Part shown: positions 4,280-8,590 of the stretch, in pieces | Position numbering within the stretch: the stretch's first letter is position 1 | Layout of the letters: every line of letters begins with the position of its first letter | NCBI GenBank assembly: GCA_036844485.1 | Contig: DAIUFS010000002.1 | Span: 11,085 to 75,084 of the forward strand | DNA length: 64,000 bases | From: Candidatus Dormiibacterota bacterium | Lineage (GTDB): Bacteria > Chloroflexota > Dormibacteria > Aeolococcales > Aeolococcaceae | Direction: 5' to 3' | Position numbers and translations under genes: made by a program | Notes under the pieces: generated by a model | The model's database searches: none | Told to the model about the DNA's origin: nothing | What the model saw: only the letters and a program-made list of their open reading frames with translations

Positions 4280-5110
4280 ATGTCCGGCCTCCTGCTCGAA
4301 CCCATCGCGGTCCGGCCATCTGGAGCCGCTTCGTGGTCCGGACCTTCGGCGATCAGGCGGGTCACCAGCCGCGCGTCCGACGCCGCCCCCCTGGCCACGC
4401 TCTGCGTGGTGGCGAGCCTCGTCGTGGTTTGGATCCTCGAGCGCGTCCTGTCGGGCCAGGTGCACCGGGGCCTGACCATCGGCTACCTGGCCTTCGGCGG
4501 CCTCCCCAACGCCGGCATCGTCGGCCGCGGTGATCCATCCCAGCTGTGGCGCTGGGTCAGCAGCGGCCTGGTCCACGACCGCAGCACCCCACTGCATGTG
4601 ATCAGCAATTCGCTGGCGCTGATCATGGTGGGATCGGTGATCGAGCGGCTGTACGGGCGAGTGGCGCTGCTCGCCTGCGTGGCTCTCGGCGTGGTTGCCG
4701 GATCGTTCACGTGGCTGGAGGCGTCCGCCCTTGGCCTCGCCGGCGAATCCGAATACACGATCGGCCTGTCGCCCGGGATCTGCGCCCTCATCGGCGTCCT
4801 CCTGGTCTACGGGTATCGCAGGCGCGGCGACCTGTCCCGGGAGCTGTCGCAAGCGATGAGAGCCCAGGCCACAGTGGGCATCGGGTTGATGGCTCTGCTC
4901 GGTCTGGTGGTGCCGAACCTCAACAACCTCGCCCATGCGGGCGGCCTGGTGGCTGGGGTGATGATCGGCGTCTGCCTCCCGGTCACACAACCGGGAAGGC
5001 CACTCACCCTGAGCTGGCGCACCCGGATGGTTTTCTCGGTGGTGCTGGCCGCTTCCGCCGCCGCCATCCTCTTCGCCGGAGAGAACCTCATCTGGCGATT
5101 GAACGGGTGA
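4280..5110 (+). CDS. rhomboid family intramembrane serine protease
   Basis: HVISN (HxxxN), GLSPGICALIG (GxSx catalytic Ser region) and LAHAGGLVAG (catalytic His) motifs in a polytopic membrane protein. Confidence 0.8.
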   Translation: MSGLLLEPIAVRPSGAASWSGPSAIRRVTSRASDAAPLATLCVVASLVVVWILERVLSGQVHRGLTIGYLAFGGLPNAGIVGRGDPSQLWRWVSSGLVHDRSTPLHVISNSLALIMVGSVIERLYGRVALLACVALGVVAGSFTWLEASALGLAGESEYTIGLSPGICALIGVLLVYGYRRRGDLSRELSQAMRAQATVGIGLMALLGLVVPNLNNLAHAGGLVAGVMIGVCLPVTQPGRPLTLSWRTRMVFSVVLAASAAAILFAGENLIWRLNG

Positions 5111-5224
5111 CCTCCCACAGCACATCCGGACCGTCTGACGCGCGGCGCCGCTAGGCTTCGCGCCGGCTGACCGCGCCACCCTCGCGGGCAGAGCCGGCTC
5201 CGGCCATGAACTTGTGGAGGACGT

Positions 5225-5977
5225 GTGATGCTCGATCCCTTGCTGGCTGAGACGGTGACGATCTGGGGCCATGGGGGCGATGCCATCCCAGCCCACCTGG
5301 CGCGGCTCGGTGCCGGGCCGCACCCGGGCATGGTGGTCATTCACCACATGCCGGGGTGGGATGAGAGCACCCGCGAGATCACCCGGCGTTTCGCCGCCCA
5401 CGGGTACATCGCGGTCTGCCCGAACCTGCATCACCGCGATGCGCCGGGGGCCGCTCCTGACGATGGCGCCGCCGCCGCCCGCGCCAACGGGGGCGTGCCC
5501 GACGAGCGCTTTCTCGGCGACTGCGAGGGGGCGCTGCGGTATCTGCGCGCCATGCCGTCGTGCTCGGGGCGAGTGGCGACGATCGGGTACTGCTCCGGCG
5601 GCCGCCAGAGCTTTCTCGCAGCCTGCGAGCTCGATCCCGACGCGGCGGTGGTGTGCTATGGCGCCTTCATCGTGGGCACCCCGCCCGCCGGCATGGCCAC
5701 CAGCGTGGTCCCCGTCATCGCCCGTGCCGCCGGCATCACCTGTCCGGTGCTCGGGCTGTTCGGCGCAGAGGACTCACACCCATCACCCGACGAGGTGGGT
5801 GAGATTGACGCCGAGTTGACCCGCCTCGGCAAGCCCCACGAGTTCCACACGTTCGACGGAGCCGGGCATGGCTTTTTCGCGACCGACCGTCCCTCGTATC
5901 GACCCGAGGCCGCGACGGAGGGCTGGCGCCGGATCTGGGATTTCCTCGACCGCGTGCTCCAGCCGGGGGGTGACTGA
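5225..5977 (+). CDS. dienelactone hydrolase family protein
   Basis: GMVVIHHMPGWDE, nucleophile elbow IGYCSGG, and C-terminal GAGHGF are typical of the DLH fold. Confidence 0.85.
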   Translation: MMLDPLLAETVTIWGHGGDAIPAHLARLGAGPHPGMVVIHHMPGWDESTREITRRFAAHGYIAVCPNLHHRDAPGAAPDDGAAAARANGGVPDERFLGDCEGALRYLRAMPSCSGRVATIGYCSGGRQSFLAACELDPDAAVVCYGAFIVGTPPAGMATSVVPVIARAAGITCPVLGLFGAEDSHPSPDEVGEIDAELTRLGKPHEFHTFDGAGHGFFATDRPSYRPEAATEGWRRIWDFLDRVLQPGGD

Positions 5978-5978
5978 G

Positions 5979-6245
5979 GTGTGCACGTACGCGACCGAGC
6001 GCGTGGCCGTGCGAGGGAGCGCCAAGGCGGCGGGGCGGTGGGCGACGGTGGGGGAGGCCACGGTGTACCTCGACCACCCCTACACGACACCACTCGATCA
6101 CACGCTGAACATCGACTTCTTCACCGACTCCGCCGAGCGGTCGCGCCACATCGCCCTGGAACTGTCGCCTGAGTCCGCTGAGCTGCTGCTCAGGGCCATC
6201 CGCAGGGCCCTACAGACTGATCCGGCCAGCTGCTCGGCGTCGTGA
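5979..6245 (+). CDS. small hypothetical protein (88 aa)
   Basis: In-frame GTG at 5979 lies directly after the DLH stop and a G-rich SD. The sequence (VCTYATERVAVRGSAKAAGRWATVGEATVYLDHPY...) resembles small actinobacterial DUF proteins from memory only. Confidence 0.45.
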   Translation: MCTYATERVAVRGSAKAAGRWATVGEATVYLDHPYTTPLDHTLNIDFFTDSAERSRHIALELSPESAELLLRAIRRALQTDPASCSAS

Positions 6246-6258
6246 AATGTTCGACGGA

Positions 6259-6717
6259 TCAGCAGCACGCGCCCCCCGTCGCAGCGGCGTCCGGTGCGCA
6301 CGCACCCGCGCCGCAGCTGGTCTCGCCACGCAAGGTCGAGGTGTGCGCAGCGTCGCTCTCGGCGAGGACGGTGTACACCTCCCAGGGGGCGCCGTCGGGG
6401 TCGCTGACCCAGACCTTGTCCTGGAGCGCGTAGCAGCATTCGACGCCGGCCTCGGTGGTCGTCTGGAGTCCGGAGTCGGAGAGCCGTCGGGTTGCGGCGA
6501 TCACCTCGTCCGTCGACGAGACCTCGACTCCGAGATGGTTGAGCGTCGCACCGCCACCCTCCGACTCGATGAGCACCAGCTTCAGCGGTGGCTCGTCGAT
6601 GGCGAAGTTGGCGTATCCGGGCCGGCGCTTGGCCGGCTCGGCCGCGAAGAGCTTGGAGTAGAAGGCGACCGCCGCCTCCATGTCGGTGACGTTGAGGGCG
6701 AGTTGGACTCGAGACAC
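6259..6717 (-). CDS. ArsI/CadI family VOC (glyoxalase-fold) protein with a vicinal Cys pair and a Cys-rich tail
   Basis: The family-typical N-terminus MSRVQLALNV starts at the GTG at 6717. Also GVECCYALQDKVWVSDPDGAPWEVY and the C-terminal CGAGACAPDAAATGGACC. Divergent from an ArsR gene. Confidence 0.8.
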   Translation of the reverse strand: MSRVQLALNVTDMEAAVAFYSKLFAAEPAKRRPGYANFAIDEPPLKLVLIESEGGGATLNHLGVEVSSTDEVIAATRRLSDSGLQTTTEAGVECCYALQDKVWVSDPDGAPWEVYTVLAESDAAHTSTLRGETSCGAGACAPDAAATGGACC

Positions 6718-6719
6718 GG

Positions 6720-6767
6720 TCAGACTGTGATTCCGGCCGGGCAGGGACACGGGTAATCGCAGGGCAT
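6720..6767 (-). CDS. 15-codon Cys-rich upstream ORF (MPCDYPCPCPAGITV) coupled to the ArsI/CadI gene
   Basis: AGGAGGA lies 7 nt upstream of the ATG at 6767. Its TGA (6722-6720) is 2 nt from the GTG start of the downstream gene, which has no SD of its own. Too short for the ORF track. Confidence 0.35.
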   Translation of the reverse strand: MPCDYPCPCPAGITV

Positions 6768-6829
6768 GGTTCTCATCCTCCTATCGATGAGCGTCGATTG
6801 ATGTTGCACGATGGTACACAGCTCCATCG

Positions 6830-7198
6830 ATGGCTGTCAATGGGTATGATCGAGGCATGACTGCGCTGCATATGGCGACAACCCGCGTCAAGGGCTGCTG
6901 CCAGGAGCTCGCCGACCCCCTGCCCGCCGGCGTGGTCGATGACGCAGCGGCGCTGCTCCGGGCGCTCGCCGACCCCACCCGGCTGCAGATGCTGGCGATG
7001 CTGGCGAAGAGCACCGAGCCCATCTGCGTGTGCGATTTCACCGCCGCGTTCGACCTCGGACAGCCGACCGTCAGCCACCATCTCGGCAAGCTGCGGGACG
7101 CCGGCCTGGTCACCAGCGCCAAGCACGGCATCTGGGCCTTCTACGCGCTGGCGCCTCGTCTGCCCGCCGTCGCCGAGGCCGTGCTCGCCGCCCTGTAG
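6830..7198 (+). CDS. ArsR/SmtB family metalloregulatory transcription factor
   Basis: LADPTRLQMLAMLA..ICVCDF....LGQPTVSHHLGKLRDAGLV (winged HTH with a CVC metal/metalloid site). Confidence 0.88.
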   Translation: MAVNGYDRGMTALHMATTRVKGCCQELADPLPAGVVDDAAALLRALADPTRLQMLAMLAKSTEPICVCDFTAAFDLGQPTVSHHLGKLRDAGLVTSAKHGIWAFYALAPRLPAVAEAVLAAL

Positions 7199-8590
7199 TC
7201 AGCGTCCCTGCAGGCGCGTGACCCATCGCGCGCGCCGCGAGCGGCGCCCGGTGCGACGTTCGACATCGTCCGCGCTGCGCATCGCGCGCACGCTGAGATT
7301 GACGGCGAGCCATCGCAGCGGTTCAGGCTCCCAGCGGCGCGAGCGATGCTGCACCCACGGCAGGCGGGTCAGGTCCGTCTCGCGCGAGAGAATGAGATCG
7401 GCGAGCGTTCGGCCCGCCACGTTGCTGGCGGTCACGCCGTCGCCCACGTATCCCCCGGCCGAGGCGATGCCGCGCTCCCGGTCGATGGTCACCGATGGCC
7501 ACCAGTCCCTGGCGACCCCGATCGGTCCGCCCCAGCGATGGGTCACGGGCACATCCCGCGACTGCGGTATCAACTCGTGGAGCGCTTGCTCGAGAGCCGC
7601 AAAGACCCCGGGCTCGCGATCGAAACCGTCGGCGACGCGCGACCCGATGTGGTACGGCGCCCCGCGCCCTCCAAAAGCGATCCGACCGTCTGCGGTGCGC
7701 TGCGCGTAGATGATCAGGTGACGTCCGTCGTTGAGCGTCTCTCCCCGGGACCAGCGGATCTCCGCCCACGCCCGGTCCGGCAGCGGCGCGGTGGCGATCA
7801 TCAACGAGTAGAGGGGAAGGACAGAGCGACGCTCGCCCCTCAGGGCGGAGGTGTACGCCTCGGTGGCGCGGACCACGGTCTGGGCGCGGGCGGTTCCCCG
7901 TGTGGTGACAGCCGCGTGCGCCCTCAACTCGGTCACAGTCGTCTGCTCGACGATGCGTCCGCCGAGGCCCTCCACCGCACGTGCCAGGCCGCGCACCAGC
8001 TTGGCGGGATGAAGACGTGCACAGTGCGGTGTGTACTGCGCTCCCCGGCAGCCCGGCACGTGAATCCGCTGAGACACCTGGTCCGCGTCGAGCCAGCGCA
8101 CCCCCAGGTCGGCACCGTCCCGCGCCTGTGAGCTCACCGCCTCCGCACGAAGCTCCGCCTCCTGCAGGGCGGTCATCGCCAGGGTCAGGCAACCGCCTCT
8201 GACCAGGTCGGCGTCAAGGTGCTCGCGCCGAAGCGTGGCGGCGATGTCGTCGATCCCCTCGACGAGGGCATCGTGCATGGCCTGCGCGCTATCCAAGCCC
8301 ACCTCCGCGACCACGCGGTCCCACGACACAGGAAAGAGGTCGCTGCACCACCCGCCGTTGCGTCCGCTCGCGCCGAAGCCGGCTATCTCGCGCTCCAGGA
8401 TCAGAACCCGCAAGGTGGGGTCCTGTCGCAGCAGGGCATACGCCGTCCATAAGCCCGTGTAGCCCGCTCCCACGATGGCCACGTCGACAGTGCAGTCGCC
8501 GTCGAGCGCCGCTCGCGGCGACAGGTCGTCCTCCACTGTGTCGAGCCACAGGCTGAGCCGGCGATACCGCTGTGAGCCGGCGGCGGTCAC
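7199..8590 (-). CDS. FAD-dependent oxidoreductase (DAO family, gamma-glutamylputrescine/amine oxidase-like)
   Basis: VDVAIVGAGYTGLWTA dinucleotide-binding motif, plus FGASGRNGGW. The GTG start overlaps the stop of the upstream aldehyde dehydrogenase (GTGA). Confidence 0.85.
   Translation of the reverse strand: MTAAGSQRYRRLSLWLDTVEDDLSPRAALDGDCTVDVAIVGAGYTGLWTAYALLRQDPTLRVLILEREIAGFGASGRNGGWCSDLFPVSWDRVVAEVGLDSAQAMHDALVEGIDDIAATLRREHLDADLVRGGCLTLAMTALQEAELRAEAVSSQARDGADLGVRWLDADQVSQRIHVPGCRGAQYTPHCARLHPAKLVRGLARAVEGLGGRIVEQTTVTELRAHAAVTTRGTARAQTVVRATEAYTSALRGERRSVLPLYSLMIATAPLPDRAWAEIRWSRGETLNDGRHLIIYAQRTADGRIAFGGRGAPYHIGSRVADGFDREPGVFAALEQALHELIPQSRDVPVTHRWGGPIGVARDWWPSVTIDRERGIASAGGYVGDGVTASNVAGRTLADLILSRETDLTRLPWVQHRSRRWEPEPLRWLAVNLSVRAMRSADDVERRTGRRSRRARWVTRLQGR

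Follow-up and report, generated by a model that had tools for sequence, protein, structure and literature searches.

Very short, cysteine-rich open reading frames (ORFs) and tightly linked translation of neighbouring genes have both been described in prokaryotes. In mycobacteria, ribosomes that pause at the consecutive Cys codons of polycysteine short ORFs open an RNA structure that hides the ribosome-binding site (RBS) of cysteine-metabolism operons (bioRxiv 10.1101/834739; PMC9094748). Translation of one gene can also be passed on to the next by termination-reinitiation, which in experiments with E. coli and Haloferax was efficient only where the genes overlapped or lay very close together; distances of -8 to +10 nucleotides (nt) are taken as predictive of the process, ~20 nt abolishes it, and the gene pairs that use it are enriched for subunits or partners that act together (PMC10666635). 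The locus considered here, a 15-codon Cys-rich upstream ORF (uORF) directly in front of an arsI/cadI gene, has something of both. It lies on contig DAIUFS010000002.1 of a Candidatus Dormiibacterota bacterium (assembly GCA_036844485.1), and "the window" below means the whole stretch of 64,000 nt that was analysed. Our preferred reading, to which we give a probability of roughly one half, is that this mini-ORF opens an ArsR-controlled operon and would encode an arsenical-binding micropeptide whose synthesis is coupled to that of ArsI. The core of the locus is as follows.

6776-6782, minus strand: Shine-Dalgarno (SD) sequence AGGAGGA, 8 nt 5' of the uORF ATG, with an anti-SD duplex of -10.2 kcal/mol
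6720-6767, minus strand: Cys-rich mini-ORF of 15 codons plus TGA, encoding the peptide MPCDYPCPCPAGITV
6718-6719, minus strand: spacer CC, 2 nt from the uORF stop to the arsI start
6259-6717, minus strand: arsI/cadI, 152 codons plus stop, starting with GTG, without a strong SD of its own and ending in a Cys-rich tail

Read along the minus strand from 6782 to 6715, the order is AGGAGGA, tgagaacc, ATG CCC TGC GAT TAC CCG TGT CCC TGC CCG GCC GGA ATC ACA GTC TGA, cc and GTG, with the ATG at 6767-6765, the TGA at 6722-6720, the cc at 6719-6718 and the GTG at 6717-6715, followed by TCT CGA GTC CAA. The initial annotation had reported precisely this sequence and this peptide, with the mini-ORF at 6720-6767. 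Its statement that the uORF has the only strong SD is also true at the locus, where the anti-SD duplex energy is -10.2 kcal/mol for the uORF versus -3.5 kcal/mol for arsI; across the whole window AGGAGG occurs 56 times. The C-x3-C-x-C spacing that it gave for the three Cys residues is present in the window copy but is specific to it, the kin having typically C-x-C-x-C-x-C. Codon 5 (TAC, 6755-6753, with the A at 6754) specifies Tyr in the window versus Cys (TGC) in L169, a metagenome contig that is 99% identical to window positions 4725-6847 and encodes MPCDCPCPCPAGITV. The residue is Cys in 16 of the 17 other versions of the mini-ORF and Gly in L081. Judged by these relatives, the Tyr of the window reflects either the recent substitution of one base, turning Cys into Tyr, or an error in sequencing. 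Within the 64-kb window the mini-ORF is the only SD-led ORF of 8-45 residues with at least three Cys and at least 20% Cys (shuffle mean 0.17), and no further Cys-rich mini-ORFs that could form a "ribulon" with it were found there. Enrichment of the uORF in the rare codons TGT and GAT was not significant (p ~0.09), TGT and TGC being used much as in neighbouring genes.

The distribution of the mini-ORF was followed in 160 ArsI loci gathered regardless of upstream content, 80 from species-representative genomes and 80 from metagenomes, to which contigs coding for the closest database homologues of the window ArsI were added. A Cys-rich mini-ORF lies upstream of arsI in 8 of the 160 unbiased loci. 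The window's ArsI clade, defined in a neighbour-joining tree and taking in Ca. Aeolococcus and other Dormibacterota, carries the uORF in 12 of 12 distinct loci, and several loci outside the clade carry it too; this is the conservation in related genomes that the initial annotation had made its own test. Most loci are without the uORF and share a common plan, seen in Acidimicrobiia, Frankia, Streptomyces, cyanobacteria and others: a TTGACA promoter, two ATCGA...TCGAT boxes, GGAGG, and then ATG/GTG-S-R-V-Q-L-A 5-9 nt further on. In the window clade, the mini-ORF sits between the positionally homologous SD and arsI. Cultured actinobacterial plasmids (Kitasatospora, Streptomyces, Rhodococcus, Mycolicibacterium, Embleya and M. 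avium) have no mini-ORF, and their arsI has its own SD. The collection yielded 18 distinct DNA versions, with ArsI homologues ~70-99% identical. They follow the pattern MPCDCPCPC..., run to 14-21 codons with 3-8 Cys and use all three stop codons (TGA, TAG and TAA). Beside that of L169, examples include MTCDCPCPCVAGSTV, MPCDCPCPCECPCVGGCL, MSCDCPCPCPCPFPCACGGAV, MPCDCPCGTCPCGSGV and MPCGCPCGCGFPCVCCATSTG.

Comparison of these 18 versions points to selection on the peptide itself. Codons 2-7 have 4 minor alleles at the first codon position, 3 at the second and 37 at the third. Pairwise differences in the uORF frame comprise 378 synonymous and 112 non-synonymous changes (77% synonymous), versus synonymous shares of 7% in the +1 frame and 20% in the +2 frame, which is that of arsI; the pairwise counts are inflated by shared ancestry, which leaves the frame contrast and the site-wise periodicity unaffected. 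The 8-10 nt between the SD and the start vary freely, unlike the uORF codons. Variation that is three-periodic and mostly synonymous indicates a mini-ORF that is translated and selected as a peptide, and the same codon statistics rule out both a chance ORF and an N-terminal extension of ArsI. That the mini-ORF is a real, translated and conserved gene is therefore, on comparative grounds, very probable. Selection is not limited to Cys. Pro6 is invariant yet uses all four Pro codons, Asp4 is written GAT in 8 versions and GAC in 8, and Pro2 is found in 15 of the 18, so these non-Cys residues, too, are under purifying selection. The versions differ in both the sequence and the length of the peptide's C-terminal half, with in-frame indels in the middle of the ORF.

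The gene behind the mini-ORF is, by profile and by residues alike, an ArsI/CadI VOC metalloenzyme. The ORF from GTG-6717 scores 197.8 bits against NF041414 (ArsI/CadI family heavy metal resistance metalloenzyme; cut-off 116), its residues 3-152 aligning with profile positions 1-147 of 147, so that profile position 1 falls at residue 3, and it also matches Pfam Glyoxalase at 2e-16. The Fe-binding residues Q5, H61 and E113 and the substrate pair C94-C95 do not vary across 20 aligned homologues, and they equate to Gln8/His65/Glu117 and Cys98/Cys99 of T. curvata ArsI (PMC6138428, PMC12607644). The initial annotation had placed the start of this gene at the GTG 2 nt past the uORF; 146 homologues without a uORF begin at the same M/V-S-R-V-Q, which bears it out.

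The geometry of the two genes suggests that they are translated as a pair. The gap from stop to start is 2 nt in 16 of the 18 versions and 1 nt in the other 2, despite the variation in uORF length and stop codon; the spacer letters among them are cc in 13, ct in 1, ac in 1 and c in 2. In L065 the gap is +7 nt. At coupled loci the SD of arsI is weak (median -4.7 kcal/mol, -6.9 to -1.7, n=15) and the start is GTG in 10 of 15, versus a median of -9.5 kcal/mol (n=146) and an ATG start in 122 of 146 where there is no uORF (Mann-Whitney p = 5e-9 for the SD energies). The uORF's own SD has a median of -10.6 kcal/mol. With a weak signal at arsI and a strong one at the uORF, the ancestral arsI SD would now serve the mini-ORF, arsI having lost its independent signals. 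The window pair is co-directional, and its +2 nt gap falls within the range of -8 to +10 nt. The translational coupling claimed by the initial annotation is thus supported by the fixed gap of 1-2 nt, the shift of the SD, the GTG starts and a gap within reinitiation range, and arsI is probably translated by termination-reinitiation after the mini-ORF. A programmed frameshift joining the peptide to ArsI was also considered and was rejected: a stop is always present, and the spacer measures 1, 2, 7, 10 or 27 nt, depending on lineage.

Upstream of the mini-ORF lie a predicted promoter, two operator-like boxes and a divergent arsR gene.

6835-6840, minus strand: -35 hexamer TTGACA from the promoter scan, with the same TTGACA in most homologous loci
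6811-6816, minus strand: -10 hexamer TACCAT from the promoter scan; relatives have TACGAT, TAGCAT, TATGAT or TATGCT (TAnnAT) at the same place
6826-6841, no strand assigned: operator-like box 1, ATTGACAGCCATCGAT on the minus strand, a 5-6-5 inverted repeat overlapping the -35
6783-6798, no strand assigned: operator-like box 2, ATCGACGCTCATCGAT on the minus strand, between the predicted transcription start and the SD
6830-7198, plus strand: arsR, an ArsR/SmtB repressor with a CVC motif (HTH_5 4e-16, NF033788 89 bits)

The sigma-70-like promoter (TTGACA, 18 nt, TACCAT) has 10 of 12 matches where 0.1 such promoters are expected in shuffles. Its -10 hexamer ends 43 nt 5' of the uORF ATG, which puts the predicted transcription start near 6804 and gives a leader of ~37 nt; the predicted transcript would hence not be leaderless. 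A search for repeats and palindromes found the 16-nt box twice at the locus, and both copies are kept in relatives. The motif CAATCGACGnTCATCGATAGGAGG is nearly invariant across the uORF-bearing clade, and ATCGA/TCGAT boxes are kept in nearly all ArsR-arsI loci. By analogy with its family, we infer that ArsR binds at the boxes and represses the operon. Its CVC motif, in the context ...EPICVCDF..., is of the As(III)-binding R773 type. The start of arsR is ambiguous, being either ATG 6830 (122 residues) or ATG 6857 (113 residues), and the latter is more likely; the 113-residue form is found in a cluster-mate of the window ArsR that has an NCBI accession. With a start at 6857 the uORF-arsI promoter stays intergenic, whereas a start at 6830 would place its -35 inside arsR. 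The leader itself appears to be unstructured. The window leader folds no better than shuffles (z = +0.89), and the leaders of 14 relatives give z-scores from -2.1 to +1.9 with differing folds, none of them shared. An attenuator hairpin was dropped as a model, given neither a stable nor a shared fold in the window and the 14 relatives. No Rfam family was found at the mini-ORF locus.

Cys-dense mini-ORFs occur beside arsI in more than one form. Across the 762 kb of collected loci, every SD-led, Cys-dense mini-ORF with at least 4 Cys adjoins arsI or is an ArsI tail (L106, L155), and the mini-ORFs fall into three unrelated sequence families. The first is the MPCDCPC type, upstream of arsI and coupled to it. 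The second, a C-P-P-E-C type, is likewise upstream (L117 418-465, MNCCAECPPECPPCC; L077 2902-2964, MDRDPACPEPCCPECPPGCC), with arsI keeping a strong SD of its own (-12.6 and -9.8 kcal/mol) 10 and 27 nt further on. The third, MDDCC..CC..GCC, is 15-17 residues long, has its own GGAGG, and lies 33-52 nt downstream of arsI in another Actinomycetota ArsI clade. Its members are listed here by locus.

L031 3508-3555; L034 3499-3549; L055 3482-3535; L111 877-930; L072 3548-3601; L021 2245-2298: third-family mini-ORFs

At L052 (3391-3441) a sequence of the third family, clearly the same as in L055 and L111, is fused in frame to ArsI as its C-terminal tail, and tails of the form CC...CC end most ArsI proteins, those of cultured actinobacteria included. 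In-frame fusion is the usual sign of partnership at the protein level. Because they lie downstream or leave arsI with a separate SD, the second and third families cannot be, or need not be, leaders. In L031, L034 and L052, the gene immediately upstream of arsI runs in the same direction, its product ends in ...CCA*, and its 3' end touches or overlaps the start of arsI; the product may be an ArsR with a Cys pair at its C-terminus.

The mechanism that we propose would run as follows. The mini-ORF would be the first cistron of a two-gene operon, mini-ORF and arsI, repressed by ArsR. A trivalent arsenical would free ArsR from the two ATCGA-N6-TCGAT boxes, allowing a transcript with the short leader described above to be made. 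Ribosomes would load at the sole strong SD, translate the 15 codons, terminate at the TGA and reinitiate 2 nt on at the SD-less GTG of arsI, so that ArsI synthesis would depend on synthesis of the peptide and follow its amount. The ancestral peptide (MPCDCPCPC...), 14-21 residues long and carrying 3-8 thiols, would act as a thiol-rich micropeptide, a miniature metallothionein or chaperone. Its ligand would be either As(III), which ArsI releases without retaining it, or MAs(III), the substrate of ArsI. As(III), the product of ArsI, does not bind the enzyme significantly (PMC12607644), and three thiols make up the classical As(III) site, as in ArsR (Cys32/34/37). The Cys-rich tails of ArsI and the separate Cys-rich mini-ORFs beside arsI in other lineages may do the same job. 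An arsenical-binding function of the peptide is, by this analogy, a serious possibility that stops short of being likely. More tentatively, Cys-rich micropeptides may have been recruited independently at least three times (upstream and coupled, free-standing up- or downstream, and as a fused tail) as the smallest known mini-metallothioneins at ArsI, taking up As(III) or MAs(III). Two roles had been suggested initially, a metal-binding peptide or a translational sensor. The first of them is the better supported, by selection on non-Cys residues and by independent Cys-rich mini-ORFs that lie downstream or are fused; the second finds neither RNA structure nor a conserved C-terminal arrest motif.

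Several points weigh against the micropeptide. The support for translation, reinitiation and metal binding comes wholly from the comparison of sequences. With its 14-21 residues, the peptide is smaller than every metallothionein known to us and might be unstable in the cell. The window copy is down one Cys, with three remaining, and the C-terminal half is poorly conserved. Homology of the peptide to known metal-binding families was not detectable: five peptides of 20-21 residues (three from the MPCDCPC family and one from each of the two others) and a 37-residue concatenate gave no Pfam or NCBIfam match at E-values up to 10, in a search whose sensitivity is very low at such length. The downstream and fused Cys-rich families, too, are without demonstrable homology to the window peptide, and the support they lend is by analogy. 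In-frame fusion of the upstream MPCDCPC peptide to ArsI was sought with chimeric queries, made up of the peptide with either the ArsI N-terminus (4 candidates returned) or full ArsI, and was found in none of the top 120 homologues, a search of limited power. With the full-length query, all matches but one had at most 91% coverage, essentially the ArsI part, and the exception (P0002, 98% coverage) is a frame-shifted N-terminal extension and not a Cys-rich fusion. Finally, conservation of non-Cys residues would equally fit a regulatory role of the nascent chain, and tight coupling makes ArsI output sensitive to the decoding of Cys codons, so that a regulatory role and a peptide role are inseparable by sequence.

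The main rival explanation, which we consider unlikely, takes up this last point. The peptide would be functionless, and its Cys codons would tie transit of the uORF, and hence ArsI, to charged tRNA-Cys, as a gate on cysteine or thiol supply, so that ArsI synthesis would follow the thiol status that arsenic stress disturbs. Nothing in the uORF is better conserved than its Cys codons (4-8 within 9-17 codons), there is a precedent in the polycysteine short ORFs, which act via ribosome pausing at Cys codons (bioRxiv 10.1101/834739), tight coupling would pass any pause in the uORF on to arsI, and ArsI is itself Cys-rich (6 Cys in 152 residues). However, the hallmarks of the known system are missing: the transcript is predicted not to be leaderless, the gene downstream is not one of Cys metabolism, and there is neither an RNA structure over an RBS nor a downstream RBS to mask. 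The main family has no consecutive Cys codons save for one CC pair in L166, and the balance of TGT and TGC, as noted, is not significantly unlike that of neighbouring genes. Under stop-start coupling, a ribosome stalled on Cys codons would cut ArsI synthesis and not raise it, so that ArsI would fall when thiols are scarce, a response of no obvious benefit. A pure codon sensor has no need of purifying selection on Pro2, Asp4 and Pro6, and Cys-rich mini-ORFs that lie downstream of arsI, or leave it with a separate SD, cannot act in this way. A plainer possibility is that the uORF merely loads ribosomes and sets a fixed, probably reduced, rate of arsI translation, its Cys/Pro sequence being an accident preserved by weak constraint on the initiation region. 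That coupling itself is under selection is shown by the hand-over of the SD and the invariant gap of 1-2 nt. The peptide does vary in its C-terminal half, and the leader is unstructured, as an efficient initiation region should be. Yet the synonymous excess and codon periodicity reveal selection at the amino-acid level, all 18 versions have 3-8 Cys, independent Cys-rich mini-ORF families stand beside arsI in other lineages, and such ORFs were found nowhere else in the 762 kb and 64 kb scanned. A mere tuning device is, on balance, improbable.

Two further alternatives carry much less weight. While the nascent chain is still in the exit tunnel, its Cys residues could capture As(III) or MAs(III), stalling the ribosome and altering arsI expression, which would make the uORF an arsenite-sensing arrest peptide. 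Chemically, such a ligand would suit a C-x-C-x-C site, the conserved N-terminal MPCDCPC includes non-Cys residues, and the peptide is short enough to lie wholly within the tunnel at termination. What makes this very improbable is that the motif-to-stop distance has a spread of 7 residues and that conservation is lacking in the last 4-6 residues, nearest the peptidyl-transferase centre, unlike in known arrest peptides; that a ribosome held up at the stop codon or close to it would block the arsI start 2 nt away, repressing arsI just when arsenic is present; and that transcription would already be under arsenic control via ArsR. It is hardly credible, in turn, that there is no separate gene here, only an N-terminal extension of ArsI from GTG 6750 or a chance ORF in GC-rich DNA. 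The arsI frame is indeed open back to 6750, and, of the 27 closest database homologues examined, ~20 had been called with an arsI lengthened over the mini-ORF (window 6718-6750; proteins P0002-P0038). The extension was rejected on the frame contrast given above, with 20% of changes synonymous in the arsI frame and 77% in that of the uORF. NF041414 and the 146 homologues begin at M/V-S-R-V-Q, and chance predicts 0.17 such mini-ORFs per window. The extensions as called (MSLPGRNHSLT, LPVPVPVPLP and the like) are unconserved, frame-shifted readings of Cys-Pro repeats, and they are, to judge from these sequences, a systematic annotation error.

The surroundings of the operon vary among relatives. 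Just past arsR, at 7199-8590, lies a gene for an FAD-dependent oxidoreductase of the DAO family, identical to HEY8756112.1 from a Candidatus Dormibacteraeota metagenome-assembled genome. A DUF6295 gene (window 5868-6245, plus strand; L169 606-881) is convergent on the 3' end of arsI. The window has no arsC or aquaporin gene behind the arsI operon. In L162, L163, L168 and L178, arsI is followed by a MIP channel gene and a gene of the low-molecular-weight phosphatase family, possibly an arsenate reductase. The ArsI of L169 (P0006, 180 residues) has a C-terminus that is frame-shifted relative to the window (equivalent to ~6259-6350) and has lost the Cys-rich tail; the indel responsible may be real or an assembly error. 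Elsewhere in the window, Rfam identified a cobalamin riboswitch (RF00174, 49106-49305, minus strand, 98.5 bits), and no other family exceeded its gathering score.

Arsenic-resistance operons have attracted decades of study. ArsI is, to our knowledge, the only known C-As lyase. The ingredients described here, Cys-rich short ORFs, termination-reinitiation and metallothionein-like chemistry, are all known. Their combination, the tie to ArsI and the recurrence in three forms appear to be undescribed. No small Cys-rich cistron associated with ArsI was found in Pfam, NCBIfam, Rfam or the literature searched, and a literature search for a Cys-rich small ORF with arsI or cadI, with ars operons or with arsenic returned nothing relevant. 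If the peptide binds arsenicals, it would be a new and extremely small player in arsenic detoxification, and it would give a function to the puzzling Cys-rich tails of ArsI. The 18 variants, with their simple geometry and an easily assayed phenotype, offer a natural contrast between a functional micropeptide and a regulatory leader. Annotation pipelines could correct both the mini-ORF, which gene callers routinely miss, and the wrongly lengthened arsI. The locus would also provide a first regulatory or translational feature for the poorly known phylum Dormibacterota, of which we know no well-studied cultured representative.

Set against known systems, the mini-ORF most resembles the polycysteine leaderless short ORFs (Canestrari et al. 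2020) in being unannotated, very short, Cys-rich and the first cistron of an operon in a high-GC genome of Gram-positive type, in being conserved mainly via its Cys codons, and in that translation of the short ORF would set the expression of the gene behind it. Polycysteine short ORFs are leaderless and have at least 2 consecutive Cys codons, whereas the window uORF has a predicted leader of ~37 nt, a strong SD and alternating C-x-C; they precede cysteine-metabolism operons with an RNA structure over the RBS, whereas here arsI follows by direct stop-start coupling, with neither RNA structure nor a downstream RBS. In the window uORF family conservation extends to non-Cys residues, unlike in the polycysteine short ORFs. 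The pair shares with described termination-reinitiation pairs (Huber et al. 2019, 2023; PMC6728339, PMC10666635) its co-directional genes, a gap of +1/+2 nt and a downstream start without a strong SD; it differs from them in an upstream partner of just 14-21 codons and in its +2 geometry, the commonest natural ones being overlaps of -4 or -1 nt. Unlike the arrest peptides TnaC, SpeFL and ErmCL, the family has no conserved residues at a fixed distance from the stop. TnaC responds to tryptophan and SpeFL to ornithine, which makes them the analogues of an arsenite-sensing arrest peptide.

On the side of the peptide, the likeness is to metallothioneins, of which the bacterial SmtA/BmtA and MymT and the Neurospora Cu-metallothionein of 25-26 residues are examples. 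Like them, the family is small, has no aromatics, contains 20-43% Cys in C-x-C motifs, stands behind what is predicted to be a metal(loid)-responsive promoter of ArsR/SmtB type, and could plausibly form thiolate coordination. The window copy has 20% Cys and one Tyr, and its relatives have 27-43% Cys, where the criterion for a metallothionein is ~15-30% or more. Unlike metallothioneins, the peptide matches no Pfam or NCBIfam family and would be translationally coupled to an enzyme gene. The window peptide differs from the Cys-rich ArsI tails in being a separate upstream gene, in having C-x-C and not CC, in being additional to a normal ArsI tail and in showing no detectable homology to one. The metallochaperone ArsD has its arsenic site at Cys12-Cys13-Cys18. 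With those tails, and with the vicinal-Cys sites of ArsD and ArsR, the mini-ORF shares one arrangement: closely spaced thiols attached to, or co-expressed with, proteins that handle arsenic.

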